A stretch of DNA of 64,000 nucleotides from a virus (lineage: Duplodnaviria; Caudoviricetes). Below the pieces are notes generated by a model. The model was not told the DNA's origin, searched no databases, and saw nothing but the letters and a program-made list of their open reading frames with translations. Below, one piece after another: positions 12,257 to 63,477 of this stretch; within the stretch, counting starts at the first letter, position 1, and each line of letters opens with the position of its first letter. A program made the position numbers and the translations under genes. Where the stretch lies: the IMG/VR virus record IMGVR_UViG_3300008116_000002. One strand, written 5' to 3'.

Positions 12257-12285
12257 TTGACAAGATGACCATTTTGTGCTATAAT
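12257..12285 (+). promoter_or_regulatory. Strong sigma70-type early promoter
   Basis: TTGACA-17 bp-TATAAT with extended TG and an A-tract UP element. Confidence 0.88.
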
Positions 12286-13178: not shown

Positions 13179-13200
13179 AGCGCCCTTCGGGGCGCTGTCT
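13179..13200 (+). terminator. UUCG hairpin terminator
   Basis: AGCGCCC-TTCG-GGGCGCT followed by T-rich sequence. Confidence 0.7.
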
Positions 13201-14277: not shown

Positions 14278-14306
14278 TTGACACAGATACCAAGTTGTGC
14301 TATAAT
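14278..14306 (+). promoter_or_regulatory. Strong sigma70-type early promoter of the tRNA array
   Basis: TTGACA-17 bp-TATAAT with extended TG. Confidence 0.88.
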
Positions 14307-14384
14307 AAGCACATATTAAAGAAGTAGGCAATGCAAGACAGCGTTGCTTGTAGTAAATGTTATTTAACAATTTGTACTAGTTTT

Positions 14385-14461
14385 GCCCACTTAGCTCAGT
14401 CGGTTAGAGCACAATCTTGATAAGGTTGGGGTCCCTGGTTCGATTCCAGGAGTGGGTACCA
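14385..14461 (+). tRNA. tRNA-Ile(GAU)
   Basis: Cloverleaf, anticodon loop TTGATAA, encoded CCA. Confidence 0.95.
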
Positions 14462-14462
14462 A

Positions 14463-14538
14463 GTCCCATTCGTCTAGTGGCCTAGGACATCGCCCTTTCA
14501 CGGCGGTAACAGGAGTTCGAGTCTCCTATGGGACGCCA
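14463..14538 (+). tRNA. tRNA-Glu(UUC)
   Basis: Cloverleaf, loop CTTTCAC, CCA. Confidence 0.95.
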
Positions 14539-14581
14539 TTTGATATGCCGATTGAGAAATAGTACAGTCAACATATCAAAT

Positions 14582-14659
14582 GGTAAGGTGGCTGAGTGGT
14601 CCAAAGCAGCAGTCTGCAAAACTGTAAAGCCGCCGGTTCAAATCCGGCCCTTACCTCCA
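14582..14659 (+). tRNA. tRNA-Cys(GCA)
   Basis: Cloverleaf, loop CTGCAAA, U73 discriminator, CCA. Confidence 0.93.
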
Positions 14660-14664
14660 GATAA

Positions 14665-14739
14665 GGTCTCAAAGTGTTCATGGACGCACATATGCCTGTC
14701 ACGCATAAAGAAGGGGATCGTTACCCCTTGAGACCGCCA
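14665..14739 (+). tRNA. tRNA-Asp(GUC), atypical D and T loops
   Basis: Acceptor GGTCTCA/TGAGACC, loop CTGTCAC, G73, CCA; T loop reads GATCGTTA instead of GTTCGA. Confidence 0.85.
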
Positions 14740-14780
14740 GAACCCCCGGGATCCCTTACCCGGTAATATTACTAGGGGGT

Positions 14781-14946
14781 ATTGACAGCCACAATGTCAG
14801 GGTGTCGAGATCGGAGCTACCTCAAAACTCCTGGGAAGGAGTGACGAAAAGTCTCGAAGGACAGCGCTGCAACTGACCTTAATAAAAGCGGACGGACAGT
14901 GAAACAACTCAGGAAAGGGCGAGTGCTGGGTGCTCGTAGCTTTCCA
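14781..14946 (+). ncRNA. Putative structured ncRNA A ending in CCA
   Basis: GC-richer intergenic stretch with several stems; GAGCTAC/GTAGCTT helix followed by T-CCA; shares a GGACAG..AACAACTC.AG motif with ncRNA B. Confidence 0.5.
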
Positions 14947-14948
14947 TT

Positions 14949-15030
14949 GCCCATGTGGTGAAATGGTAGACACGCTTGCCTTAGGAGCAAGTACGAGAGT
15001 GTGGCGGTTCGAGTCCGTCCATGGGCACCA
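14949..15030 (+). tRNA. tRNA-Leu(UAG)
   Basis: Cloverleaf with variable arm, loop CTTAGGA, CCA. Confidence 0.93.
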
Positions 15031-15122
15031 TATTGAAGTGTTGTTTAGGGTGGCAGGTAAAAGTTTAACAAGACTTTGAGGGCTGGAATTCCCGATCTGT
15101 GAACAGCAGAACACTTCAATAT

Positions 15123-15197
15123 GGGGAATTGGCGTAATTGGGAACGCAGTAGCTTTGCAAGCTTCAGTCAGGAGTTCGAATCTCCTATTCTCCACCA
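15123..15197 (+). tRNA. tRNA-Ala(UGC)
   Basis: G3:U70 pair, loop TTTGCAA, CCA. Confidence 0.94.
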
Positions 15198-15204
15198 AAT
15201 ATTT

Positions 15205-15282
15205 CGGGGAGTAGCTTAGTCCGGTTAAAGCGCCTGCTTTGGGAGCAGGAGATCGAGAGTTCGAATCCCTCTTCCCCGACCA
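15205..15282 (+). tRNA. tRNA-Pro(UGG)
   Basis: Cloverleaf, loop TTTGGGA, CCA. Confidence 0.95.
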
Positions 15283-15289
15283 GTTTTAT

Positions 15290-15364
15290 TCCAGAGTAGC
15301 TCAGCGGCAGAGCCGCGGACTGTTAATCCGTTGGTCGTTGGTTCGATCCCAACCTCTGGAGCCA
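15290..15364 (+). tRNA. tRNA-Asn(GUU)
   Basis: Cloverleaf, loop CTGTTAA, CCA. Confidence 0.95.
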
Positions 15365-15370
15365 GTTTTA

Positions 15371-15455
15371 GGATGACGAGCAGCATTGGTGACTGCAGCA
15401 GACTGTAAATCTGTCGCCTCAGGCATACGGGGTTCGATTCCCTGGTCATCCACCA
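15371..15455 (+). tRNA. tRNA-Tyr(GUA)
   Basis: Cloverleaf with variable arm, loop CTGTAAA, CCA. Confidence 0.93.
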
Positions 15456-15458
15456 TAC

Positions 15459-15533
15459 GGGAGATTAGCTCAGTGGTAGAGCAGCGCCCTTACAAGGCGA
15501 AGGTCAATGGTTCGACCCCGTTATCTCCTACCA
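15459..15533 (+). tRNA. tRNA-Val(UAC)
   Basis: Cloverleaf, loop CTTACAA, CCA. Confidence 0.95.
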
Positions 15534-15541
15534 GATTTTAT

Positions 15542-15618
15542 CTGGCGTTAGCTCAGTTGGATAGAGCAACAGCCTTCTAAGCTGTGGGTCGGGGGTTCGA
15601 ATCCCTCACGCCAGGCCA
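15542..15618 (+). tRNA. tRNA-Arg(UCU)
   Basis: Cloverleaf, loop CTTCTAA, CCA. Confidence 0.96.
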
Positions 15619-15624
15619 TACAAT

Positions 15625-15698
15625 TGGGGATTAGTGAAATGGTATCACACCGGATTTTGATTCCGAGGTCGTAAGTTCGATTCTTACATCCCCTGCCA
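15625..15698 (+). tRNA. tRNA-Gln(UUG)
   Basis: Cloverleaf, loop TTTTGAT, CCA. Confidence 0.93.
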
Positions 15699-15730
15699 AA
15701 TCGTTATTAAAGTGTTAATAAAACAAATGC

Positions 15731-15759
15731 TTGACAAGAAATTGATTCGGTGTTATAAT
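15731..15759 (+). promoter_or_regulatory. Strong sigma70-type early promoter
   Basis: TTGACA-17 bp-TATAAT with extended TG. Confidence 0.88.
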
Positions 15760-15788
15760 TATGATATAATGTAAATAAGGAGATACAA

Positions 15789-15929
15789 ATGCAACGAAAA
15801 CGTATCGCCAAGCCCCGTAACCCGCTGGTGGCTTTGGCATTGTTTAAGAAAGCGGGTAAGCATCAAAAAACAAACAAAGCATTACGTAGGGAATATAGAG
15901 CGGGCATAGCTCAGTTGGTAGAGCAGTAG
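15789..15929 (+). CDS. Small Lys/Arg-rich protein whose stop lies inside tRNA-Lys (46 aa; missed by the ORF track)
   Basis: SD TAAGGAG; MQRKRIAKPRNPLVALALFKKAGKHQKTNKALRREYRAGIAQLVEQ*. Confidence 0.75.
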   Translation: MQRKRIAKPRNPLVALALFKKAGKHQKTNKALRREYRAGIAQLVEQ

Positions 15930-15975
15930 ACTTTTAATCTATGTGTCGTGGGTTCGAATCCCTCTGCCCGTACCA
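15900..15975 (+). tRNA. tRNA-Lys(UUU)
   Basis: Cloverleaf, loop CTTTTAA, CCA. Confidence 0.95.
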
Positions 15976-16056
15976 TATTAAAACACATTTCGAGCGGTGT
16001 TCCGATATCGGCCAGCCCGCCCCAAAGTAGATGTCTAGGGTAGTGTGTTTTAATAT

Positions 16057-16405
16057 GGTGAAGAAGCAAGGTTGGGATTTCGTCAGATAATGACGGTGCG
16101 CTGAAAAAACCCAGTAATGCGAAGCCGAAAGGCATCCTTGCGGTAAGCAGAAAGTTGGCGTGGCGACCAATCATCATAAAGTTCCGGTTACTACTTTCCT
16201 GAAAGTAGCGTATGGTAAACGAGAAAGTCCCGGTGGCTATGGCACCGTTAGCGAGACATAGACTCTGTATTTCGATGCGGTGTCTCCGGTGTCTCAGACA
16301 ACATAGCAACGTGGACACTACGCAGCAAACCGCTATTAGTGTTTGGACAGGGCAACAACTCCAGCATAGGGGCGATCTGTGGAAAGACGTGGCCTAAGCA
16401 AGAAT
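16057..16405 (+). ncRNA. Putative large structured ncRNA B (about 350 nt)
   Basis: Many stems in an AT-rich genome: GCAAGG/CCTTGC, CGTCA/TGACG, GCC-GAAA-GGC, CTACTTT/AAAGTAG, CGGTG/CACCG, GAGACA/TGTCTC with an inner UUCG hairpin; no credible ORF; flanked by tRNAs. Confidence 0.6.
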
Positions 16406-16410
16406 ACGAT

Positions 16411-16486
16411 GGTGTCTATAGTGTAGTGGTCTGCACGCCAGATTGTGGGCCTGGCAGTATGAGTTCAATCCTCATTAGACACCCCA
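16411..16486 (+). tRNA. tRNA-His(GUG)
   Basis: G-1 and C73, loop TTGTGGG, CCA. Confidence 0.9.
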
Positions 16487-16540
16487 AAGTTAATCGCGTG
16501 TGAGGCGTGGGGCTTCGGCCCCTAACCTATTTGTACTTGT

Positions 16541-16630
16541 GGAAGTGTGGCAGAGTCCGGTTTATTGCAACAGTCTTGAAAACTGTCGAACAGAAATGTT
16601 CCGTGAGTTCGAATCTCACCGCTTCCGCCA
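16541..16630 (+). tRNA. tRNA-Ser(UGA)
   Basis: Long variable arm, loop CTTGAAA, G73, CCA. Confidence 0.95.
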
Positions 16631-16643
16631 CTAAGGAGTAATT

Positions 16644-16793
16644 ATGCCAATGTATGAAACAACAGTAAGAACGCCACAGGGTGAAGTAAAAGATAGAGTG
16701 TTTGCAAAAGATTTACAAGAAGCAAGAATGCTTTTTGAACAAAGACACGGACCTAGAAACGTACCATATATACCTAAAGTAATTCCAAGTTAG
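16644..16793 (+). CDS. Small hypothetical protein (49 aa; missed by the ORF track)
   Basis: SD TAAGGAG; MPMYETTVRTPQGEVKDRVFAKDLQEARMLFEQRHGPRNVPYIPKVIPS*. Confidence 0.7.
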   Translation: MPMYETTVRTPQGEVKDRVFAKDLQEARMLFEQRHGPRNVPYIPKVIPS

Positions 16794-16805
16794 AAGGAGA
16801 AACAA

Positions 16806-17369
16806 ATGCCTGCAATTTTTTTAGTTAGTGATACTCATTTCGGCCATGCAGGCGTTTGTAAATTTCTACGTGACGATGGCACTAAATTACGTCCATGGGA
16901 TAACCCCGAGGACATGGATGAAGAAATGGTCAAGCGGTGGAATGAAACTGTTAGACCAAAAGATAAAGTTTATCATTTAGGAGATGTAGTTATTAATCGA
17001 AAGGCTTTAAAAACGCTTAGTAGATTAAACGGTGAAAAGGTCTTAATCAAAGGTAATCACGACATCTTTAAACTTGAAGAATACACTGAGTATTTTAAAG
17101 ATGTTCGAGGTTATCATGTACTGAATGGAATGATTCTAAGCCACATTCCTATTCATGAAGAAAGCCTTGCGAGGTTCGGGACTAATATTCATGGACATCT
17201 ACATTACAATCGTGTAAAGAAAAATGAAGTCATTGATCCTCGTTATCACTGCGTATGTGTAGAGCATACCGACTACCGCCCAATTCTTTTTGAGGATGTC
17301 ATTAAAAAGATTCAAGAAGAGGGTGGGCATATTGGATTTAAAAATGGCAATGGACCTATTATAGATTGA
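16806..17369 (+). CDS. Calcineurin-like metallophosphoesterase
   Basis: SDTHFGH, HLGDV, KGNHD, SHIP, IHGHLH motifs. Confidence 0.93.
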   Translation: MPAIFLVSDTHFGHAGVCKFLRDDGTKLRPWDNPEDMDEEMVKRWNETVRPKDKVYHLGDVVINRKALKTLSRLNGEKVLIKGNHDIFKLEEYTEYFKDVRGYHVLNGMILSHIPIHEESLARFGTNIHGHLHYNRVKKNEVIDPRYHCVCVEHTDYRPILFEDVIKKIQEEGGHIGFKNGNGPIID

Positions 17370-17379
17370 GGAGTTTGAA

Positions 17380-17586
17380 TTGAATACTAAGTTGAAAGCA
17401 ATTAAACAGACAGCTATGATGGTAGTTATCATATGTCTTATTCCTATGATTCTAACGTTTTTGTTTACTTCCGAGATAGCATCTTATATTTTTATCATAG
17501 GTATGGTAGCATTTTTTATATACATTATGTATTCTGTAAATCTAGCATTTATAGAATTTGAGGAAAAGTTTAAAAATAAGGAGTAA
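17380..17586 (+). CDS. Small two-TM membrane protein
   Basis: TTG start after GAGGAG; two hydrophobic helices. Confidence 0.55.
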   Translation: MNTKLKAIKQTAMMVVIICLIPMILTFLFTSEIASYIFIIGMVAFFIYIMYSVNLAFIEFEEKFKNKE

Positions 17587-17592
17587 GTATTT

Positions 17593-17687
17593 GGAGCGTT
17601 GGCCGAGTTGGTCGAAGGCACTTTCCTGCTAAGAAAGCATCTGGGCAAAAACCTGGATCATTGGTTCGAATCCAATACGCTCCGCCA
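17593..17687 (+). tRNA. tRNA-Ser(GCU)
   Basis: Long variable arm, loop CTGCTAA, CCA. Confidence 0.94.
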
Positions 17688-17692
17688 GCAAT

Positions 17693-17724
17693 GCCCCCGT
17701 AGTTTAATGGTAAAACAGCGGATT
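17693..17724 (+). pseudogene. Orphan 5' half of a tRNA, broken in the anticodon loop
   Basis: GCCCCCG-TA-GTTTAATGGTAAAAC-A-GCGGA-TT gives the 5' acceptor strand, D arm and 5' anticodon strand; no matching 3' half found; a late promoter follows directly. Confidence 0.75.
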
Positions 17725-17725
17725 G

Positions 17726-17733
17726 TATAAATA
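17726..17733 (+). promoter_or_regulatory. T4-type late promoter of the endonuclease gene
   Basis: Exact TATAAATA, then SD AAAGGAG. Confidence 0.8.
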
Positions 17734-17752
17734 ATAGTAAAGGAGAAATCTT

Positions 17753-18403
17753 ATGCTATTATGCAAATTTTGCCAAAAAGAATGTAAGAATGAAAACTCA
17801 TTGAGGAATCACAAGAGACTTTGTAAAGAAAATCCAAATAAACAACCACACCCTAAAGGTAATAGCGGAAAAGTTGGTTGGAATAAAGGGCTAACTGCAG
17901 AAACTGATGATAGAGTTTTTGCTAATAGAGAAGCTTTACGAAAACAAAGAAAAGAAAATGGTTCTAATTGGATAGGAAGAAAGCATTCAGATGAAACTAA
18001 AGAATTATTATCAATAAGAGCGTCTGAACGTTTATGTAAAAATTCAAAATACTCTATAAATTTTGAATATAAACCTGGAATCATATTAGAATCTTCATAT
18101 GAAGTTGAAACTGCTAAAATTTTAGATGAATTGAATATAGAATGGATTAAAGTTAGGACTGGTTATAAATGGGATGACAATGGAAAGATAAGAAGATATG
18201 TCCCTGATTTTTTCCTTCCGAAATATAACATATTTCTAGATCCAAAAAATGATTATTTGATTAAAAAAGACAAAATAAAAATAGATTCTGCAATGAAACT
18301 TAATTCAATAACTATTATTGTGTTATCAAAAGATGATTTGAATGTAGAATCTATAAAAAGTAAATTGCCTACCGTAGCTCAAGGAGAGCAGGGTGCCTTA
18401 TAA
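17753..18403 (+). mobile_element. Free-standing homing-type endonuclease (Zn finger + NUMOD3-like + PD-(D/E)XK-like domain)
   Basis: CKFC...H...C, GWNKGLT, GRKHSDETKELLS, SSYE...YVPDFFLPKYNIFLDPK; very AT-rich. Confidence 0.75.
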
Positions 18404-18457
18404 GCACTTCGACCAGATAAGTCCCAGGTTGTGGTTCGATTCCGCACGGTAGGACCA
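18368..18457 (+). tRNA. tRNA-Ile(UAU) with long variable arm
   Basis: Acceptor CCTACCG/CGGTAGG, A73, loop CTTATAA, T arm GGTTCGATTCC, CCA. Confidence 0.8.
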
Positions 18458-18459
18458 GA

Positions 18460-18534
18460 GGTAATGTAGCATAACGGTAGTGCACCGCCTTCATACGGCG
18501 CAAGGTATAGGTTCAAATCCTATCATTACCACCA
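18460..18534 (+). tRNA. tRNA-Met(CAU), probably elongator
   Basis: Paired G1:C72, loop TTCATAC, CCA. Confidence 0.85.
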
Positions 18535-18544
18535 TAGTTTCAGA

Positions 18545-18620
18545 CGCGGATTAGGGAAGAGGTCATCCCGCTAGGCTCATAACCTGGAGATCGCTGGTTC
18601 GAATCCGGCATCCGCAACCA
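18545..18620 (+). tRNA. Initiator tRNA-fMet(CAU)
   Basis: C1:A72 mismatch, CGCGG start, loop CTCATAA, CCA. Confidence 0.9.
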
Positions 18621-18628
18621 GTTTATAA

Positions 18629-19216
18629 ATGAATATGAAAATTTATGATAATGTTTTACCGAATCAAACTTTTTCTAATTTAAAAAATAGAATTTTTGAT
18701 TCCAATTTCCCTTGGTTTTTTAGTAGAACTTCTGTAGAAAATCCTATAGAGGATAATATTTTAACCTATAGTTTTTCTCATGCGGTTATGAATCACGGTG
18801 TGCCAAATTCTATAATATTTGACACAATTAATAGTTGCATCTTAACCATGTTAGATAATTGTAATATAAAACTAAATATGTTATTAAGTATTAGACTTGG
18901 ATTACTACAACCAGTGTCTAGAGAAAATCATAGTAATGATCCGCACGTGGATAGTCAAGAAAAACACAAGGTGGGTTTATTCTATTTAAATACTACAGAT
19001 GGCGCAACAACAGTATATAATGAAAAGTACGATCCTTCTACAAAGATGGATCCAACAGAATATTATAGATCGGTTCTAAATAGAAATCTTTCTATTCAGT
19101 CCAAAGTAGAATGCACTGAAAATAGATTAGTTATTTTTGATGGTATGTATTATCATTCAAGTACTACTCCTACCGATGTACCTAGGAGAGTAGCATTAAA
19201 TTTTAATTTTGTATGA
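18629..19216 (+). CDS. 2OG-Fe(II) oxygenase-like protein
   Basis: PHVD (HxD), LFYLNTTDGAT, ENRLVIFDG, HSS...RVALNFN double-stranded beta-helix pattern. Confidence 0.75.
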   Translation: MNMKIYDNVLPNQTFSNLKNRIFDSNFPWFFSRTSVENPIEDNILTYSFSHAVMNHGVPNSIIFDTINSCILTMLDNCNIKLNMLLSIRLGLLQPVSRENHSNDPHVDSQEKHKVGLFYLNTTDGATTVYNEKYDPSTKMDPTEYYRSVLNRNLSIQSKVECTENRLVIFDGMYYHSSTTPTDVPRRVALNFNFV

Positions 19217-19218
19217 TA

Positions 19219-19296
19219 CCGCCATTAGCTCAATTGGAATAGAGCGCAACGCTACGGACGTTGAGGTTAGGGGTTCGAGTCCTTTATGGCGGGCCA
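19219..19296 (+). tRNA. tRNA-Arg(ACG)
   Basis: Cloverleaf, loop CTACGGA, CCA. Confidence 0.94.
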
Positions 19297-19874
19297 GTTT
19301 CTGAAGGTGGAATTGCTATTAATTCTTCAATACCAAAGTAATAGTCTTTAAGAATTTCTGACATTAGATCGCATATTTTTATATTTTTTTCAAAACCAGC
19401 AAGATCATTTTTTCTACCTTCTATTTGCTTTTCAACAAGTTCAAGTATTAAATTTTTTCTTTTGGTTTTAGAATTTACTCGACGTAGTACTTGTTTTAAA
19501 TGTTCGAGATGAACATTACATACATTAATATTGTGGTGCATATCTGTTCGTATTTTTATAACCTCATCCTGCATTAGGACAATTAGATCATCTGTTTCTG
19601 GGTTTAAGTTAGGAACAAGTCTTGACACCATCTGAGAAATATGTTCTAATGCAGCATTGCGAAGAGTTAGATCTTCTGAGGACTCACCTAACAGATCAAA
19701 TTCTTTTCTTCGAATAGGATCGATTAGAATTTCATATGCAAGTTTAATACGAACGAATATTTGTTCATCCCCACCCTTGTCGGGATGATGCACTTGAGCC
19801 AATGAACGAAATTTTATTTTAATTTCTTCATCTGTTGCATCAATCGGAATATCTAATTCGATGTAAGGATTCAT
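19284..19874 (-). CDS. J-domain (DnaJ-like) protein
   Basis: NPYIELDI...FRSLAQVHHPDKGGD...AYEILIDPIRRKEFD. Confidence 0.9.
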   Translation of the reverse strand: MNPYIELDIPIDATDEEIKIKFRSLAQVHHPDKGGDEQIFVRIKLAYEILIDPIRRKEFDLLGESSEDLTLRNAALEHISQMVSRLVPNLNPETDDLIVLMQDEVIKIRTDMHHNINVCNVHLEHLKQVLRRVNSKTKRKNLILELVEKQIEGRKNDLAGFEKNIKICDLMSEILKDYYFGIEELIAIPPSETGPP

Positions 19875-19912
19875 GGCTATAAATTATTTTATAGTATTTA
19901 TTAGGAGATAGT

Positions 19913-20095
19913 ATGTCAGGAAAAGGATCTAAACCAAGACCATTTGCAATAACCAGGGAACACTTTGTAGAAAACTGGGATATGATTTTTAACAAAGAAA
20001 ACAATACTGGTACAGATAAAAATGAGTATCAAGACATTCTTTCAACCGAGGAAGCAGTATTATCAGCTTTCGAAAACTTAAAGGAAGTAAAATGA
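19913..20095 (+). CDS. Small hypothetical protein
   Basis: SD TAGGAG; MSGKGSKPRP...; ATGA-coupled to the next gene. Confidence 0.75.
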   Translation: MSGKGSKPRPFAITREHFVENWDMIFNKENNTGTDKNEYQDILSTEEAVLSAFENLKEVK

Positions 20096-20991
20096 ATCTC
20101 GCTGGTGTTAACGGCAGCATAGCGGTCTCCAAAACCGAAGGACGGGGTTCGAATCCCTGGCGGGGTGCCAAATATATTGCTCTACTACTTGCATTCGTAA
20201 CTTGCTTTGCGTCTGCGCATGAGCCTAAAAAGAAAAAGAAAAAGAAAGTAGTTACTGCGGAAACTGCAAGCTATGTGGTGTACAACAATACAAAAGATGC
20301 TTACGAGTATATTAGAGAAAAAGAAAAGGTTCGCCCAATAGCAAGTGTCACTAAGCTAATGACGGCAATGGTTGCTCTAAATTATGATTTGAATTTAAAT
20401 CGAGAACTTAAAATTCAATCTAAGGTAGGTGGGACTTTACCGAGAAACAAAAGTTATACTAGGCAAGAATTGTTTGGAGCAATGCTTGTTCGAAGTGATA
20501 ACTCCGCGGCAGAAACTTTGGCTAGTGATTTTCCTGGAGGTAGAGAAGCCTTTATTCGTGAGATGAATAAATTTGCAAACTATATCGGTATGCGAGATAC
20601 AAACTTCGATGATCCAACAGGACTGAGCGCTGCAAATACTTCGACAGCCACAGATGTTGCGGCGATGGTTGCACATGCAGCACAATATACTTTGATTCGA
20701 GAAACTAGTACAAAGAAGCAGGTTGAAATTGATACTCAATATAAGAGAAAAATTAGAAAACTTGTTTTAAACAATACAAACAAACCTGTTCTTTTTAACT
20801 TTGATGATATTGTCGTTAGTAAAACAGGCTTTACCTCCAGAGCAGGATATTGTTTGGCTTTGGCAGTTGAACGAAACAATCAAAGATATTCTGTAGTTAT
20901 TTTGGGTTCTAGAAATAAGCAAGCTAGAATTCATAAAGCCGAGGACATTTTGTATAATCATATTGCATACAAAGATATTGACACTAATTAA
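20092..20991 (+). CDS. D-Ala-D-Ala carboxy/endopeptidase (peptidase S11, PbpG/DacA-like), with tRNA-Trp nested in frame
   Basis: SxxK (SVTK), SxN (SDN), KTG motifs; signal peptide KYIALLLAFVTCFASA. Confidence 0.9.
   Translation: MNLAGVNGSIAVSKTEGRGSNPWRGAKYIALLLAFVTCFASAHEPKKKKKKKVVTAETASYVVYNNTKDAYEYIREKEKVRPIASVTKLMTAMVALNYDLNLNRELKIQSKVGGTLPRNKSYTRQELFGAMLVRSDNSAAETLASDFPGGREAFIREMNKFANYIGMRDTNFDDPTGLSAANTSTATDVAAMVAHAAQYTLIRETSTKKQVEIDTQYKRKIRKLVLNNTNKPVLFNFDDIVVSKTGFTSRAGYCLALAVERNNQRYSVVILGSRNKQARIHKAEDILYNHIAYKDIDTN
20096..20170 (+). tRNA. tRNA-Trp(CCA)
   Basis: Acceptor ATCTCGC/GCGGGGT, loop CTCCAAA, T arm GGTTCGAATCC, G73, CCA. Confidence 0.88.
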
Positions 20992-21006
20992 GAAAGAATA
21001 TATAAT
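20978..21006 (+). promoter_or_regulatory. Sigma70-type promoter
   Basis: TTGACA-17 bp-TATAAT. Confidence 0.8.
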
Positions 21007-21029
21007 TAGACTAGTTCAAAGGGGAAGTT

Positions 21030-21503
21030 ATGAGAAAAAAGTTGGACATTCAAGAAATCAAAAGTTTCATTGAATCGCAAAGCCCGGAAACTAAAATTTA
21101 TCTTGGAGCGGACTCTGAACGATATAAACATAATGGTAAATGGTATGCGGATTATACTATTGCAGTTGTAGTTCATATTGATGGTCGCCATGGGTGTAAA
21201 ATTTTTGGTGAGGTTCAAACTGAACTAGATTATGATGCAAAAAACAGCAAACCATCTATGCGTTTGATGAATGAGGTCTACAAGGTTGCAGAATTGTATC
21301 AAAAGATTGTGGATGTCGTCGAGGACAGACACGTAGAAATACATTTGGATATTAACCCAGATGAAAAACATAACAGTAGTATTGTGATTCAGCAAGCAGT
21401 TGGTTATATCAAAGGTATGTGTAATGTGGTACCTATGGTTAAACCAAAAGCATTTGCCGCAAGTTATGCAGCAGATAGACTTAAAGAATTGCTTGCAGCA
21501 TGA
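21030..21503 (+). CDS. RNase H-like YkuK-family protein
   Basis: IYLGADS, RLMNEV, EIHLDIN, VKPKAFAASYAADR. Confidence 0.8.
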   Translation: MRKKLDIQEIKSFIESQSPETKIYLGADSERYKHNGKWYADYTIAVVVHIDGRHGCKIFGEVQTELDYDAKNSKPSMRLMNEVYKVAELYQKIVDVVEDRHVEIHLDINPDEKHNSSIVIQQAVGYIKGMCNVVPMVKPKAFAASYAADRLKELLAA

Positions 21504-21508
21504 AATTC

Positions 21509-21582
21509 GCCCTCTTAGTTAAATGGTATAACAGTTGATTTGTAATCATCTATTGGCAGTTCGATTCTGTCAGAGGGCACCA
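21509..21582 (+). tRNA. tRNA-Thr(UGU)
   Basis: Cloverleaf, loop TTTGTAA, CCA. Confidence 0.94.
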
Positions 21583-21598
21583 TTTTAGAAAGGTCGGT

Positions 21599-21799
21599 AT
21601 GTTAGGATTGGAACAGGCAGGTGTATTTTTAGGAGCAACAATTCTTATTGGCTTTGGTATAGCATTTATTGGAATGGTTGTGATTTTTCTTAATAACATG
21701 ATTCATAGATTTTGGAAGCCGTTAAACTGGTTCGGAAAGTATTTTAACTTTAACGAGCCAACCAACCCTGAGCCTCCAAAAACTAAACCTTCATTATAA
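21599..21799 (+). CDS. Small membrane protein
   Basis: Single long hydrophobic helix; SD AAGG. Confidence 0.6.
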   Translation: MLGLEQAGVFLGATILIGFGIAFIGMVVIFLNNMIHRFWKPLNWFGKYFNFNEPTNPEPPKTKPSL

Positions 21800-21808
21800 G
21801 GAGTTTGT

Positions 21809-21961
21809 ATGCAAAAGGAATTACTAAAAGAAAATGGACCTAAGTGTGGTTGTGGTCGTAGCCCAAGTGGGTATTGCATTGGTTGGCATGGACTTTCTGA
21901 ATCGGAATATAAAGAGCGTTTGGAACAATACAAGCAAGATCTAGGCGAGAACGACAAATAA
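21809..21961 (+). CDS. Small Cys/His protein resembling a CDGSH iron-sulfur motif (50 aa; missed by the ORF track)
   Basis: SD TAAGGAG; KCGCGRSPSGYCIGWHG. Confidence 0.7.
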   Translation: MQKELLKENGPKCGCGRSPSGYCIGWHGLSESEYKERLEQYKQDLGENDK

Positions 21962-21971
21962 ATAGTTACAT

Positions 21972-22045
21972 GCGGGATTAGTTTAATGGTAAAACGAAAG
22001 CCTTCCAAGCTCTAATCATCGGTTCGATTCCGATATCCCGCTCCA
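21972..22045 (+). tRNA. tRNA-Gly(UCC)
   Basis: GCGGGAT acceptor, loop CTTCCAA, U73, CCA. Confidence 0.95.
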
Positions 22046-22049
22046 TAAT

Positions 22050-22337
22050 ATGCGTATTCAAAAAGATGAGACTTACGAGCAATGGTCAGAAAAGGTTCGT
22101 CTTTTTGAATATGGAGTTGCACTGCAAAGAATTGCTAAAGGCGACGATATAGATATTGTTTTGGAGTCTATGTCGAAAAAAATTAATCAAAAACTTTTGC
22201 ATCCTTTGATCGAAAGCATCAAACAATCATGTCAAATAGATTATGATCCTTTGATCGCAAGAAAAAATTACGAAGAAAATTACTTAGGAAAAGCAAATCC
22301 TGTAGCAGATCATATGAATGATGTAGACTTCTATTAA
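22050..22337 (+). CDS. Protein resembling the isolated dimerisation domain of glutamyl-tRNA reductase
   Basis: ALQRIAKGDDIDIVLESMSKKINQKLLHP resembles the HemA C-terminal A-L...G-E-D...L...NK-L-H-P pattern. Confidence 0.6.
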   Translation: MRIQKDETYEQWSEKVRLFEYGVALQRIAKGDDIDIVLESMSKKINQKLLHPLIESIKQSCQIDYDPLIARKNYEENYLGKANPVADHMNDVDFY

Positions 22338-22367
22338 TCACAAAGACCCCCTTAAACTTTGTGTCTA

Positions 22368-22375
22368 TATAAATA
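22368..22375 (+). promoter_or_regulatory. T4-type late promoter
   Basis: Exact TATAAATA, then SD AAAGGAGG. Confidence 0.8.
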
Positions 22376-22392
22376 GATATAAAGGAGGGTCT

Positions 22393-22821
22393 ATGATAGA
22401 TATTAATGAATTCATTAAAACTAGTAAACAAGAACGGCAATCTCATTTATTATTATCTGAAAAATGTATTGAACGTGGGGGAAATTCGACCAATCACAAG
22501 GGGGTATTAGCTCAGTATTTGAATACCTCTATCCCTTCGGGTAGAATACTTTTATGCCATGCGTGCAACAATGAAAAATGTAGTAATCCAAAACATTTAT
22601 ATTGGGGTACAGACAAAGAAAATATTACTGAAGATAATAAAAAATGGAAATCTGTTTGGGAAAGAACCATTGAAAAATATGGATATGAGGAAGCCTGCAG
22701 GATAAATTCTCGTAAGCAAATTGGAAACAAAAATGGTTCGGGCAATAAAGGTAAATCTAAAACTGAAGAACATAAAAAAAAGATAGCAAAGTCTATTAAA
22801 AGCAATTATAATAAGATGTGA
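22393..22821 (+). mobile_element. Homing-type HNH/His-Cys endonuclease with NUMOD3-like tail
   Basis: LCHACNNEKCSNPKHLYWGTDKEN; KGKSKTEEHKKKIAKS; own late promoter. Confidence 0.75.
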
Positions 22822-22831
22822 TGTATTTAAT

Positions 22832-22917
22832 GCGAGTGTGGTGGAACGGTATACACTTTGGACTTAAAATCCAACGCCCGTAAGGGATTGAGGGTTCAAA
22901 TCCCTCCACTCGTACCA
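22832..22917 (+). tRNA. tRNA-Leu(UAA)
   Basis: Variable arm, loop CTTAAAA, CCA. Confidence 0.95.
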
Positions 22918-22948
22918 GTGTTTTATATTTTTATTTTAAGGAGATTGA

Positions 22949-23485
22949 ATGAAAACAGTAGGTGATAAACTTGAATCATTTTCAGTTACCGGTGTTAATC
23001 CCGGTAAGGATGATTTCTTTACTATTACAGAAAAATCTTTTGAAGGTAAGTGGAAAGTAATTGTTTACTATCCAAAAGATTTTACATTCGTATGCCCAAC
23101 AGAAATCGTAGCATATGATAAATTGTTCCAAGACTTTGCAGATCGTGATGCAGTATTGTTGACAGGTTCAACAGATAATGAATTCTGCAAACTAGCATGG
23201 CAACGTAGTCATGAAGATCTTTCAAAGATCAAGCATATTCAATTTGCTGACACCGCACGTGAATGGGGCGTATCTTTGATCGAGCAATTGGGTGTGTTCT
23301 ACGCACCGGCAGGCGCAGCACTTCGTGCAACCTTTATCGTTGATCCAGAGAACACCATTCAGCACGTTACCGTAAACAACTTGAACGTTGGTCGTAGCCC
23401 AGAAGAAACACTTCGTATTCTTGATGCGCTACAAACTGGTGAACTATGTGCATGCAATCGCACAATCGGCGGAGAGACTCTATAA
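22949..23485 (+). CDS. ahpC: Peroxiredoxin AhpC
   Basis: YPKDFTFVCPTE peroxidatic Cys; ALRATFIVDP; GELCACN. Confidence 0.96.
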   Translation: MKTVGDKLESFSVTGVNPGKDDFFTITEKSFEGKWKVIVYYPKDFTFVCPTEIVAYDKLFQDFADRDAVLLTGSTDNEFCKLAWQRSHEDLSKIKHIQFADTAREWGVSLIEQLGVFYAPAGAALRATFIVDPENTIQHVTVNNLNVGRSPEETLRILDALQTGELCACNRTIGGETL

Positions 23486-24003
23486 TGACTGCTTGGGTAG
23501 ATACACTAAAAGAAGTAAGTATTCCTGAGTATGCCAAGGATACTAAACTTAATTTAGATGCGGTTATCAAACGTAGTTCACTACCCGCAGAAGAGGCGGA
23601 GGCAATTGCTCTTGCAGCTGCCTTTGCTACAGGTAATAGTAAACTATGGACATGGCTTCACGATCAACTTACAGATCGTAAAGAGGCAGATGCCGCTCTT
23701 ACCGCAGGCGCAATCATGGCACAAAATAATGTATGGTATCCATATGTTGAAATGGCAGATGATGCGAACCTAAAAGGTCTTCCTGCTCAACTTCGTATGA
23801 ATGCAATTGCAAGCCATGGTGGTACAACAAAGGCAAGGTTTGAAGCATATAGTCTTGCAGCAAGTATTGTGGGCAAGTGTCATTTTTGTGTAAAAGCGCA
23901 TTACGAAACTTTGAAGCAAGAAGGTTATACTGTAGAACAATTACGAGACATTGGTCGTATTGCTGCAGTAATGAAAAGTGTTGCAAGTGTTTTAGCTAAT
24001 TAA
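23485..24003 (+). CDS. ahpD: Alkylhydroperoxidase AhpD
   Basis: Start reassigned to the TAATG-coupled ATG; SIVGKCHFCVKAH; MAQNNVWYPY. Confidence 0.93.
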   Translation: MTAWVDTLKEVSIPEYAKDTKLNLDAVIKRSSLPAEEAEAIALAAAFATGNSKLWTWLHDQLTDRKEADAALTAGAIMAQNNVWYPYVEMADDANLKGLPAQLRMNAIASHGGTTKARFEAYSLAASIVGKCHFCVKAHYETLKQEGYTVEQLRDIGRIAAVMKSVASVLAN

Positions 24004-24010
24004 AGCACAA

Positions 24011-24087
24011 GGGCCGGAAGCTTAATTGGTATAAGCGTCCGACTCATAATCGGGGGACAGTGAGTTCGAGTCTCACCCGGCCCACCA
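24011..24087 (+). tRNA. tRNA(CAU), probably Ile2 (lysidine type)
   Basis: GACTCATAATC anticodon arm typical of Ile2, A73, CCA. Confidence 0.85.
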
Positions 24088-24101
24088 TTTAAGGAGAAGT
24101 T

Positions 24102-24362
24102 ATGCTAGGTATTATAGAAAATGATCGTGTAGATAAAGGTAGATATACCTCGCAAGAAGCAGCAAATAAAGTAGGTGGCATTTATAATTTGGTTTTAATT
24201 GCAAGTGCCAGAGCACGAGAACTAAAAAAACATCAATCCGCAGATACTGCAAGAACTATGATTGTTGCGGCACTCGCAGATGTTGAAGATGGTAAGGTAG
24301 GTGCAGATTATCTGCGTAGGCATCAAAAAGATATTGACAAACAATATCGCAAAAGCAAATGA
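24102..24362 (+). CDS. rpoZ: RNA polymerase omega-like subunit
   Basis: RYTSQEAANKVGGIYNLVLIASARARELKK...IVAALADVEDGK aligns by eye to omega (R-x-T...F/Y-x-LVL-x-A-x-x-RAR...ALxEI-x-x-G). Confidence 0.8.
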   Translation: MLGIIENDRVDKGRYTSQEAANKVGGIYNLVLIASARARELKKHQSADTARTMIVAALADVEDGKVGADYLRRHQKDIDKQYRKSK

Positions 24363-24449: not shown

Positions 24450-24701
24450 ATGTTGAAAGAACGTATTTTGAAAGTACTTAAGTCTGGTCGCCAATACACT
24501 CCTGCTCAACTCGCAGGTTTGACTGGCACTTCTGAGGATTCTATTCGTCCTCGTATCAGCGAGCTTCGTTCTGAAGGCTTCGCAATCTACACTAACAGCA
24601 CCAAGAATGGCAAGACTGCATATCGCCTAGGCACTCCTAGTCGTAAGATGGTTGCTGCTGCTTATCATCTTTATGGCAGCGAGGCATTTGCTCGGGTATA
24701 A
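24450..24701 (+). CDS. Winged helix-turn-helix DNA-binding protein
   Basis: Start at MLKERIL after GGAG; TPAQLAGLTGTSEDSIRPRISELRSEG. Confidence 0.8.
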   Translation: MLKERILKVLKSGRQYTPAQLAGLTGTSEDSIRPRISELRSEGFAIYTNSTKNGKTAYRLGTPSRKMVAAAYHLYGSEAFARV

Positions 24702-25278: not shown

Positions 25279-25293
25279 AGTTAGATCCCCTTG

Positions 25294-25318
25294 GGGCGAC
25301 GAAAGTCGCCCTTTTTTT
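25294..25318 (+). terminator. Intrinsic terminator ending the tRNA/early region
   Basis: GGGCGAC-GAAA-GTCGCCC-TTTTTTT. Confidence 0.92.
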
Positions 25319-25362: not shown

Positions 25363-26388
25363 ATGGAACTTATGATTCAAGCATTTAAAGAATTCCTCAC
25401 AGAAGCCAGAGAAACCGGCAAAGCCTCAGACGCAGAGGGCAAATTGCATGAACTTCTAACCGGTTTTCATTTCAATAAAAAGAAACACGTAGAATCATAT
25501 CGTGAAGAAGGTCAAACACCTCAAGAAGTTCACGATAGATTAAAGTCCGAAGTTAGTGCTGCAACTTATGATAGAATTCATAAGCATGCTAATGAAATGG
25601 CTAATCATCTACATAACTTTATTAAAGCATCGGGCTTTAAAGGTAAAGTAGGTAAAACAGCCTGGACATCTCAGACATCGGACATTGAGCATTTTACGGG
25701 AAAGAAAGATCCGAATAATGAATCAGATCTGATGACTACTTTGGTTCACGGAAAAGGCTCTACTAAACCTGAAGGCACCACTGAGCATATTGGCTTTAGT
25801 ATGAAATATGCAGATAATGCTCCAACATTAAAAAATAAAACTCCAAAGACAATGGCTGAAAGCTATAACATGGATCATAAAACCTTAGCTGAACCTCACG
25901 AAGAACATATGAAAAATGTTAGAGTTCATCTTCGTGCAGGCGAAAAAACTTCTGCGGCAGAAATGCATAAGAAGTTTAAAGAATTAAAAGGTACAGATAA
26001 AGGTAATGCGATAGAAAAAACTTCTAACTCTTCTCGTATTGAGATGATCGGTAGACTTCATGATCACCTTGCTAAAATGAATCCGCAAGAATTGCACGAT
26101 CATATATTGAATCATATTGCAGGACCAACCAACTCTACTGTTATTATGGCAAGTACCTCAAGCGAAGGTAAACATCATATTCTTGATACCAGAGAGCACT
26201 ACAAAAAAATATTAGCAGAACATAAAGATAGTTTATCTGTTAAAAAGGGTACAGGTACAACGATGTCTATTATCGGAAAAGAAGGTAAGCCATTACTAAA
26301 TTTCCAAGCTGTTAATAAAGGCAGACCAACTAAGACACCTGAGTTTATTGCTAAACCTGGTGCAGCTCTAATGAAAACCTCAGTATGA
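25363..26388 (+). CDS. Putative head-packaged protein with PD-(D/E)XK-like motif
   Basis: N-terminal AFKEFLTE motif; KLHE...SDLM...GFSMK. Confidence 0.55.
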   Translation: MELMIQAFKEFLTEARETGKASDAEGKLHELLTGFHFNKKKHVESYREEGQTPQEVHDRLKSEVSAATYDRIHKHANEMANHLHNFIKASGFKGKVGKTAWTSQTSDIEHFTGKKDPNNESDLMTTLVHGKGSTKPEGTTEHIGFSMKYADNAPTLKNKTPKTMAESYNMDHKTLAEPHEEHMKNVRVHLRAGEKTSAAEMHKKFKELKGTDKGNAIEKTSNSSRIEMIGRLHDHLAKMNPQELHDHILNHIAGPTNSTVIMASTSSEGKHHILDTREHYKKILAEHKDSLSVKKGTGTTMSIIGKEGKPLLNFQAVNKGRPTKTPEFIAKPGAALMKTSV

Positions 26389-27560
26389 AAAACTTTTTAT
26401 CCTTCCTAGCAGAACAAGTTGCACCCGAAAAGTCTAAAGCGGTTAAACACCTTTCGCATTTGGGAGGTGAAGCTCATTTCAATAGTAAAGAAGAATCTGA
26501 AGCTGATCTAAAACGATTAGAAGATCTGCACAAATATCTAAAGGGCGACCAATCTACAACTAAAAGTGTGGTGATTAAAGCAGACGGTTCACCTTCATTT
26601 GAAATGGGGCATGTCAAAAATCCTGAAACAGGACAAAGAGAATTTGGTGTAGCATATAAAGGTGCTTCTAAAGGATATGCCTTCAATCAGAAAGACATAG
26701 ATGAGAAGTTTGGACACTCTGAAGGTTTACATTCTAAGATGTCTCAGCTATTAGAACACGGCAAAAAAGTTTTAAGTCCATTACATGGAGTCTATCAAGG
26801 CGACTTCATGGGCAGTTCTAAGGATGGTACGATTAAAAAAGAAGGCGATGAGATTACTCATAAAGAGAATTTAATTAAGTATCATTACCCTGCAAATTCA
26901 GAAGAAGGTAAGGCAGTAAAGCGAGCAAAAATTAGTCTATCTTTACACACTCGTATAGATAAAGAACAGCCTGAATATGAAGTAGACACATCTAAATTTT
27001 ATTCTCATCCTGATGTTCATATCTTCAATAACAAATTGAACAAAAGAAATCTTAACTATAATTTAGATGATAGAAAAGATTTCGAAAAGCATTACACCAA
27101 GGCGATGCAGCATTTTGCCAACATAGATAACCATGATGAGTTAATACAAGGTCACAGTCAGCATCTACACACATATATTAATAAAACAGTTAGAACGGGA
27201 ACCGCACCTTCGCCTGCAGGCTATAAGAAACATTTAGATACTGTGCTACAAAAAGAAGTAGAAAAAGTAAAGAAGCCTGAGACTAAGATGAAAAAGTTCA
27301 ACGATAAATTAGCAATGATGCATCATGTGGAAACCAATAAACAACAATTCGGCGAACTGTTTAATGCTCACAGAAGTCTTGATAGAGCAAAAAATATTTT
27401 GTTAAAGACTTTAGAAAACTCTGGGCAAAATCAAAAACATACTATTGATGGCCAACATACTAACCCAGAAGGATTTGTTGTTGCATATAAAGATGGCTCT
27501 GTAGCAAAGGTGGTAAATAGAAGTAAAGAAGGATTTTCAGGAAAGAATTTAAATAAATGA
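26385..27560 (+). CDS. Ligase/nucleotidyltransferase-fold protein (KxDG ... EGFV)
   Basis: IKADGSPS, YQGDFM, PEGFVV, AKVV; N-terminal MKNFLSFLAE. Confidence 0.6.
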   Translation: MKNFLSFLAEQVAPEKSKAVKHLSHLGGEAHFNSKEESEADLKRLEDLHKYLKGDQSTTKSVVIKADGSPSFEMGHVKNPETGQREFGVAYKGASKGYAFNQKDIDEKFGHSEGLHSKMSQLLEHGKKVLSPLHGVYQGDFMGSSKDGTIKKEGDEITHKENLIKYHYPANSEEGKAVKRAKISLSLHTRIDKEQPEYEVDTSKFYSHPDVHIFNNKLNKRNLNYNLDDRKDFEKHYTKAMQHFANIDNHDELIQGHSQHLHTYINKTVRTGTAPSPAGYKKHLDTVLQKEVEKVKKPETKMKKFNDKLAMMHHVETNKQQFGELFNAHRSLDRAKNILLKTLENSGQNQKHTIDGQHTNPEGFVVAYKDGSVAKVVNRSKEGFSGKNLNK

Positions 27561-63448: not shown

Positions 63449-63477
63449 TTGACATTCTACCTGTGATATAATATAAT
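63449..63477 (+). promoter_or_regulatory. Sigma70-type promoter (primase)
   Basis: TTGACA-17 bp-TATAAT. Confidence 0.8.

Follow-up and report, generated by a model that had tools for sequence, protein, structure and literature searches.

The 64,000-nucleotide stretch of viral DNA analysed here (IMG/VR record IMGVR_UViG_3300008116_000002; Duplodnaviria, Caudoviricetes), hereafter the window, carries at positions 24102 to 24362 a gene encoding a homologue of omega (RpoZ), the small core subunit of bacterial RNA polymerase (RNAP). The product is best described as a phage-specific variant of omega, a homologue of a host RNAP core subunit encoded by uncultured T4-like phages in their transfer RNA (tRNA) arrays. 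The omega core is conserved, and the two ends of the protein are altered. No description of a phage-encoded omega was found in the literature searched, and as far as searched the variant is unpublished. The features of the gene are given below. The ratio of nonsynonymous to synonymous polymorphism (pN/pS) was obtained from five nucleotide sequences of the window's clade, in which synonymous sites are near saturation; A1 is the alignment of the close clade, and the predicted local distance difference test (pLDDT) is the confidence measure of the structural model.

24102..24362, plus strand: RpoZ-like gene for a phage omega, of 86 codons and a stop (open reading frame list, PF01192 and TIGR00690 matches, match of the family profile to PDB omega, fold matches, overall pN/pS 0.33)
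24091..24096, plus strand: Shine-Dalgarno sequence AAGGAG, at 4 nt from the 3' end of the preceding tRNA and 5 nt from the ATG (from the sequence)
24102..24131, plus strand: codons 1-10, N-terminal extension, variable and predicted to be disordered (alignment A1, pLDDT; pN/pS 1.14 for residues 2-10)
24132..24152, plus strand: codons 11-17, DKGRYTS, near-invariant, the ppGpp site-1 contact region with a preceding conserved Asp (hidden Markov model alignment; pN/pS 0.03)
24153..24311, plus strand: codons 18-70, conserved omega core with G25, Y28, A34, ARARE 36-40, A57, G64, G67 and Y70 (invariant alignment columns; pN/pS 0.28)
24312..24359, plus strand: codons 71-86, conserved basic C-terminal tail LRRHQKDIDKQYRKSK, net charge +5 (alignment A1, charge comparison; pN/pS 0.29)

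The first-pass annotation, made from the letters of this DNA, had taken the open reading frame for an omega homologue, and both hidden Markov models and structure comparison confirm it. The single window sequence scored 26.9 bits against PF01192 (RNA_pol_Rpb6; cut-off 26) and 23.6 bits against TIGR00690 (rpoZ; cut-off 23.6). The same architecture is found in about 20 metagenomic relatives of 84-87 aa (61-99% identity), and a profile built from them matched Escherichia coli omega with E=2.9e-11, profile positions 12-77 aligning with omega residues 1-70. Homology to omega is thus well beyond chance. The core motifs of the RpoZ family, G-x-x-F/Y-x-L-V-x-x-A-x-x-R-A-R-E/Q and A-L-x-x-[IV]-E-x-G, are present, and G25, Y28, A34, A36-R37-A38-R39-E40, A57 and G64 are invariant in A1 and mostly also in the wider alignment A3. 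Compared with E. coli omega, the phage protein shares the fold and the core motifs (GxxY/FxLVLIAxxRARE ... ALxxxExG) over omega residues 1-70 and keeps the equivalents of Arg3 and Thr5, but its central loop is shortened and its tail is basic instead of acidic. The conservation of the core suggests that the protein would bind the C-terminal region of beta' and the RNAP core.

The AlphaFold2 model (mean pLDDT 76.5) has helices at residues 17-24, 27-44, 50-62, 69-73 and 75-85, the first three with pLDDT 75-90, while residues 1-8 fall below 50 and are predicted to be disordered. The best 30 or so Foldseek matches and the best 37 rows of VIA-align were RNAP omega chains without exception; the VIA-align Z-scores were 4.1-6.1 over 53-70 aligned residues, and model residue 11 lies opposite residue 1 of Francisella omega. 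These matches corroborate, rather than prove, the omega helical fold. No PHROG family matched the window protein. Some copies had already been labelled 'subunit K/omega' by the IMG pipeline, and contigs as long as about 213 kb encode the identical protein.

The start codon is well defined. Upstream of the conserved core the reading frame contains no alternative in-frame start, the ATG and its Shine-Dalgarno sequence are also found in relatives, and equivalent AAGG/AGGA motifs lie upstream of the starts there. In one relative residue 10 is Pro, so that an internal start can be excluded.

A viral lineage of omega

In IMG/VR, 79 loci encoding 58 distinct relatives of the window omega were found. 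In a tree of 69 viral or metagenomic omegas and 62 cellular ones (gamma-, beta- and alpha-type), a single branch with SH-like approximate likelihood-ratio (SH-aLRT) support of 99 separates viral from cellular sequences; the tree rests on 79 columns and a quick search, and its internal order is uncertain. Within it the viral forms with a canonical 'MARITS' start look basal, and the window's clade joins other forms with D-x-G-R-Y-T-S (support 95). An exhaustive profile search returned 569 representatives of 50%-identity clusters at E<=1e-10, and among the best 150 of these only two combined a cellular N-terminus with an acidic tail. In both sequence and fold the protein belongs to the RpoZ family, without the N-terminal hallmark of the omegas that form ppGpp site 1 and without the cellular context: unlike cellular rpoZ, the phage gene sits in a tRNA array and falls in the separate viral clade.

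A tblastn search of 50,697 INPHARED phage records with the omega of the window and those of two further viral classes gave no genuine phage match, only host rpoZ contamination or host flanks, and megablast of 10 kb found nothing. Among the INPHARED records, MG065691.1, MG065686.1, OR845831.1, OR851528.1 and CAKLQH020000003.1 have omega scores equal to those of Salmonella chromosomes or carry an annotated host-type rpoZ, and they look like host DNA rather than phage omegas. A scan of cellular genome contigs gave only canonical cellular omegas and one phage-like contig in a metagenome-assembled genome. This contig (L084, 183 kb, assigned to 'Haliscomenobacter') encodes a viral-type omega beginning MARITSD with a basic tail, which falls in the viral clade and has tRNAs nearby; it is probably a mis-binned phage or a prophage. 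The same assembled genome has three omega-family matches in all.

The two ends of the protein

In E. coli, omega Ala2 and Arg3 together with beta' Arg417 hold the 5'-diphosphate of guanosine tetraphosphate (ppGpp) at site 1 (PMC13192712), and the part of the first-pass annotation that placed the omega N-terminus in this site agrees with the published contacts. The alignment to E. coli omega sets K12-G13-R14-Y15-T16 against M1-A2-R3-V4-T5. The extension that had been noted is real, although it comprises 11 residues and not the 13 first counted, since K12 and G13 align with Met1 and Ala2. All 113 cellular proteobacterial omegas extracted begin with MAR[VI]T (one with MSR) and have no extension, and among the matches listed the TIGR00690 alignment starts at model position 1-2 in all of the 151 genomes carrying the family. 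The window omega departs from this form, with 11 residues before the Met1 equivalent and Gly in place of Ala2; Arg3 is retained. Relative to site 1 of E. coli (beta' R362, R417, K615 and I619 with omega Ala2 and Arg3), the Gly13-Arg14 pair is present and highly conserved, but the phage N-terminus is no longer terminal, being preceded by the conserved Asp-Lys and about ten variable residues.

Among the dereplicated viral omegas the canonical MAR[VI]T-type N-terminus is found in only 12 of 57. The others fall into a D-x-G-R-Y-T-S class with 5 to 11 additional residues, a motif common to three clades, a large SRGxxID class with 7 to 11 additional residues, and many further types; in the SRGxxID class, a sister of the window's, Glu occupies the position of Arg3. 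An extension as such is not peculiar to phages. The omegas of the actinobacteria Mycobacterium tuberculosis and M. smegmatis have about 25 natural extra N-terminal residues (in the structural comparison their residues ~26-28 align to model residues 5-8, with 16-18% identity), but they are cellular, belong to another phylum and have an unrelated extension sequence. From the distribution of pN/pS, the novelty under selection is the Asp-Lys placed exactly at the position of the cellular N-terminus, together with the basic tail.

The acidic C-terminal tail of cellular omegas was correctly noted as lacking, but the charge has been reversed rather than simply lost. Viral tails are positive in 68 of 69 sequences (median +4), whereas 58 of the 61 cellular tails are negative and two are basic (median -6; Mann-Whitney p about 1e-22).

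Genome context and expression

The window has the gene content of a divergent T4-like myovirus, with a gp43-type family B DNA polymerase (~49% identity to cyanomyophage gp43), UvsX and a gp41/DnaB-type helicase. It also encodes tail fibres with collagen and S74 domains, virion proteins, homing endonucleases and a polynucleotide-kinase-like gene. The T4 capsid family Gp23 was present in all five near-complete omega-bearing relatives. The N-termini of the products of 26385-27560 (MKNFLSFLAE...) and 25363-26388 (MELMIQAFKEFLTE...), both on the plus strand, resemble the head-targeting tag that is removed by the prohead protease of T4.

No RNAP domain was detected on the large open reading frames of the window, and PF00623 (beta') was not found in four complete omega-bearing relatives (190-354 kb) and one partial viral contig, while the controls were positive in 14 of 14 genomes; divergent beta or beta' subunits of the phiKZ type could escape the model. 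The T4-like backbone and the lack of a detectable beta' in the four complete relatives imply that the phage omega would have to act on host RNAP and would not be part of a phage polymerase. RPB6/omega homologues do occur in nucleocytoplasmic large DNA viruses, within a complete virus-encoded multisubunit RNAP. The phage protein resembles these as a virus-encoded member of the Rpb6/omega family; the difference is that no beta' domain was found in the complete phage relatives, and the traits of a subunit of a virus-encoded RNAP of this or the jumbo-phage type, namely beta and beta' partners, were not found.

The omega gene lies at the 3' edge of an array of tRNA genes, of which the last is separated from its ATG by 14 nt. 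The elements of this region are the following.

14385..24087, plus strand: array of 25 tRNAs with interspersed accessory genes, omega being a cassette at its 3' edge (ARAGORN, Pfam/PHROG)
24011..24087, plus strand: tRNA-Met(CAT), with which the array closes; its CCA end lies 14 nt before the omega ATG (ARAGORN)
24450..24701, plus strand: gene of a winged-helix protein of 83 aa, directly 3' of omega (Pfam HTH_39/HTH_11, PHROG; synteny)
12257-12285, 14278-14306, 15731-15759, 20978-21006 and 63449-63477, plus strand: perfect sigma70 promoters
14278..14306, plus strand: of these, the TG-extended perfect sigma70 promoter at the head of the tRNA array
25293..25312, plus strand: strong intrinsic terminator-like hairpin and T-run, closing the omega/winged-helix/endonuclease block

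In the relatives, too, omega lies among tRNA genes. Within 10 kb of the 79 viral omega loci all 1296 tRNAs are on the strand of omega; at least four tRNAs (up to 46) are found at 68 of the loci, and tRNAs lie on both sides at 40. A tRNA is placed within 30 nt on at least one side of 34 of the 57 dereplicated viral omegas, and a tRNA-Met(CAT) lies 13-18 nt upstream of omega in two different N-terminal classes. Syntenic neighbours across the loci are a metallophosphoesterase (25), a DSP/PTP-like phosphatase (23), an RNase H-like protein of PF04308 (20), a winged helix-turn-helix (wHTH) protein (15) and an endonuclease (13). The wHTH gene follows omega in all seven loci of the DxGRYTS class, at a median distance of 76 nt, and is absent from all 20 loci of the SRGxxID class; its product is a candidate partner or regulator of omega.

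The accessory genes interleaved with the tRNAs in the window, all on the plus strand, encode a metallophosphoesterase (16806-17369), a 2-oxoglutarate-Fe(II) oxygenase (18629-19216), a D-Ala-D-Ala carboxypeptidase (20092-20991; the listed start overlaps tRNA-Trp and the true start is later), the RNase H-like PF04308 protein (21030-21503) and a protein of 95 aa resembling only the dimerisation domain of glutamyl-tRNA reductase (22050-22337). Just upstream of tRNA-Met and omega, at 22949-24003 on the plus strand, lies a pair of host-like antioxidant genes encoding an AhpC/TSA peroxiredoxin and an AhpD-like protein (CMD family, CxxC). Permuted transfer-messenger RNA (tmRNA) genes of the two-piece type were seen in the tRNA arrays of two relatives (L010 5734-6119 and L051 15711-16120), with the tags ANDEMFALAA and ANDEQFLMAANA; these genes may hint at the host lineage.

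Perfect TTGACA-N17-TATAAT promoters occur five times in the window, where 0.05 would be expected, and all are on the plus strand. Those at 14278, 15731 and 20978 serve the tRNA/omega block, and no strong promoter upstream of omega is nearer to it than the last of these. The promoters are preceded by A-tracts ('aaaaagtgc') and have mostly TG-extended -10 elements and AT-rich discriminators. Terminator-like hairpins at 13179 and 25293 flank the block; a hairpin after the omega stop codon was not significant (z = -1.75). With perfect sigma70 promoters and bracketing terminators, omega would be expressed by the host sigma70 holoenzyme in units that resemble stable-RNA operons, and the phage appears to lean heavily on this holoenzyme. 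The T4 late-promoter motif TATAAATA was at chance level on the plus strand. Promoters repressed by ppGpp and DksA typically have GC-rich discriminators, so the phage promoters, with their AT-rich ones, would not be of the stringently repressed type.

A search for E. coli boxA in the window gave a total number of matches at chance level. One boxA-like site, TGTTATTTAACAA at 14358-14370 on the plus strand, is weak (two mismatches) and lies in the 78-nt leader between the promoter at the head of the array and the first tRNA. Among 59 representative loci a boxA-like motif follows a near-consensus promoter within at most 120 nt in 12 cases, against about 1.3 expected; the typical form, [TC]G[TC]TCTTTAAAAA, is found about 25 nt past the -10 element, in the leaders of L030, L035, L041, L051, L055, L056, L060 and L061. 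The position of the window site and the pairing of promoter and boxA in relatives make antitermination of the type known from ribosomal RNA (rrn) operons possible for the phage tRNA operons.

Possible action on the host polymerase

Omega is both a folding aid for beta' and a processivity factor (PMC5811629; PMC13192885). Its loss lowers processivity and makes RNAP more sensitive to Rho (PMC13192885), and in vitro RNAP that lacks omega responds to ppGpp only when DksA is present (PMC5811629). Elongation and pausing are the main processes affected by site 1, while site 2, with DksA, governs initiation (PMC13192712; for control at the promoter see also PMC5811629). The reading that we prefer, though with rather less than even confidence, is that the phage omega takes up the omega site on the host core, with the latch function retained but site 1 and the tail changed, so that RNAP elongates efficiently at high ppGpp.

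The protein would be made early, as a cassette cut from a poly-tRNA transcript driven by sigma70, and would bind host beta' through its conserved core, so that host core enzyme transcribing phage DNA would carry phage omega instead of, or besides, host omega. The 'latch' role would be kept, giving stable and processive elongation complexes. The N-terminus that holds the 5'-diphosphate of ppGpp would be capped by the 11 extra residues with the conserved Asp-Lys at their end, and the acidic tail would be replaced by a basic one, both ends being the regulatory ends of cellular omegas. The net result may be an RNAP that stays fast and processive on the long, largely untranslated tRNA and early operons of the phage as host ppGpp rises. 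That the protein binds host beta', takes the place of host omega and affects the ppGpp response or processivity is what we infer from the features described above.

The first-pass annotation had proposed that swapping in this subunit desensitises host RNAP to the stringent response, in keeping with transcription of a tRNA array during starvation. The target being host RNAP only and the remodelled N-terminus favour such a change, but Gly13-Arg14 is kept and the basal viral omegas are canonical. As to the tRNA array, an effect on elongation and processivity is more plausible than an escape at promoters. A swap of omega leaves site 2 and DksA untouched and the phage discriminators are AT-rich, which moves the expected effect from promoters to elongation; what may be altered is the elongation response through site 1, and not the control of promoters by DksA and site 2. 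The idea about ppGpp site 1 is plausible but unproven. It is speculation that the phosphate pocket might be neutralised or plugged by the conserved Asp, which stands three residues ahead of the Arg.

Several observations weigh against this reading. Gly13-Arg14, corresponding to Ala2-Arg3, is retained under very strong purifying selection, which may mean that site 1 is modified rather than destroyed or, just as well, that ppGpp is still bound. Since residues 2-10 evolve neutrally, a large part of the 'extension' may be no more than a passive leader. About one fifth of viral omegas, those of the basal group with a MARITS start, have a canonical N-terminus; a change in site 1 is not universal, and its loss cannot be the reason why phages carry omega in general. 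Genes for ppGpp hydrolases are not tightly linked with omega: the window has none and SpoT-type HD proteins were found in two of five complete relatives (MazG was present in all five, but is generic). The association with tRNAs is in part due to descent, through synteny among related T4-like phages, and not to function. The phenotypes of rpoZ deletion in E. coli are mild (PMC13192885). Finally, the Pfam and TIGRFAM scores of the single sequence lie just at the cut-offs and the Z-scores of the fold matches are moderate.

It is possible, if rather doubtful, that the phage simply supplies omega. A raised dosage would keep every host core saturated during host shut-down, for assembly and as a chaperone and 'latch', and the changes at the N-terminus and tail would have no regulatory meaning, having arisen by drift as constraint was relaxed. 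This agrees with a core that is conserved while residues 2-10 are neutral, with the canonical form of the basal viral omegas and with the published functions of omega in beta' folding and processivity (PMC5811629; PMC13192885). However, both DKGRYTS and the basic tail are under purifying selection, and the systematic reversal of tail charge looks directional and not like drift.

Unlikely, though with points in its favour, is the role of an adaptor, in which the basic tail, the capped N-terminus or both would tie a further component to host RNAP and so redirect the enzyme to phage units; the component could be DNA or nascent RNA, a complex for rrn-type antitermination, or a regulator of the phage, for example the downstream wHTH protein. 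Basic tails are a family trait, the wHTH gene regularly follows omega in the DxGRYTS class, boxA-like motifs follow consensus promoters in relatives, and a precedent is offered by GafA of the gene transfer agent RcGTA, a regulator reported to act through omega (PMC9638019). Nevertheless, the SRGxxID-class loci that lack the wHTH gene also have basic tails, and the boxA-like site of the window is weak against a background at chance level.

We give little probability to a shift in sigma competition brought about by the phage omega. In Synechocystis omega helps to recruit the primary sigma factor and aids the expression of highly expressed genes (PMC3985657), in an E. coli rpoZ mutant the impact of the sigma38 holoenzyme is greater (PMC3147163), and the window has its five perfect sigma70 promoters; but for E. 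coli such a shift is contradicted (PMC13192885), and it leaves the N-terminal cap and the basic tail unexplained.

Very improbable is a head-targeting propeptide of the T4 type; on this view omega would go into the head, be cut behind I-I-E by the prohead protease and enter the host together with the DNA, as Alt of T4 does. The protease of T4, gp21, cleaves after (L/I)-x-E. The start of the window omega, MLGIIE|N, fits this rule and the neighbouring gene at 26385 begins with a T4-like tag, but the motif is present in only seven of 20 members of the clade, residues 2-10 are neutral and unlike that tag of the phage itself, and the gene lies in an early sigma70 unit and not in a late one; a capsid-targeting tag was therefore rejected as the principal reading of the extension. 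That the gene has no function and only hitchhikes, or is host DNA wrongly joined to a viral contig in assembly, as a small reading frame in a zone of accessory genes with single-sequence scores at the cut-offs might suggest, is effectively refuted by purifying selection, by about 20 close and hundreds of distant relatives of the same architecture, by the co-linear phage context of the 79 loci and by the clean split from cellular omegas.

The proposed replacement of a host core subunit by the phage omega can be compared with known phage strategies. T4 modifies host RNAP by ADP-ribosylation of alpha (Alt, ModA) and through AsiA, MotA, gp55, gp33, RpbA and Alc. The likeness is that host RNAP is re-tooled and no polymerase of the phage's own is brought; T4-type modifiers, however, are novel proteins of the phage, or enzymes whose targets are host subunits, whereas here a homologue of a core subunit would itself be substituted. 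Genes for the ribosomal proteins bS21 and bS1 are said to have been reported in phages by Mizuno in 2019 and Al-Shayeb in 2020. The logic is shared, in that large phages carry, often beside tRNAs, the gene of a host-machine subunit that is small, peripheral and exchangeable, but those proteins concern translation and the phage omega concerns transcription.

A wider conjecture, and a rather doubtful one, is that aquatic T4-like phages generally take over their hosts by replacing a core subunit of RNAP, a strategy not described to date. A phage omega lineage, co-transcribed with rrn-like tRNA operons that have consensus sigma70 promoters and boxA, would then re-tune elongation; in the window's clade the Asp-Lys cap would act as a plug or mimic in the 5'-diphosphate pocket and uncouple the enzyme from control by the alarmone at site 1, and the basic tail would interact with a factor of the phage or with nucleic acid.

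Omega is the least understood core subunit of RNAP, and the physiological role of site 1 beyond modest effects on elongation is not clear. The phage lineage provides natural 'mutant' subunits for working out both, as its hundreds of 50%-identity clusters keep the beta'-binding core, systematically rewrite the N-terminus that contacts ppGpp and reverse the charge of the tail; the idea is directly testable with reconstituted RNAP. Work on metagenome stoichiometry has taken rpoZ for a 'bacterial' marker gene (PMC10134851), and a large lineage of basic, Arg/Lys-rich phage omegas could contaminate or bias analyses of this kind. If the proposed role is true, the substitution of a core RNAP subunit would add a new class of host takeover to the T4 paradigm, and one linked to phage tRNA arrays that resemble stable-RNA operons.

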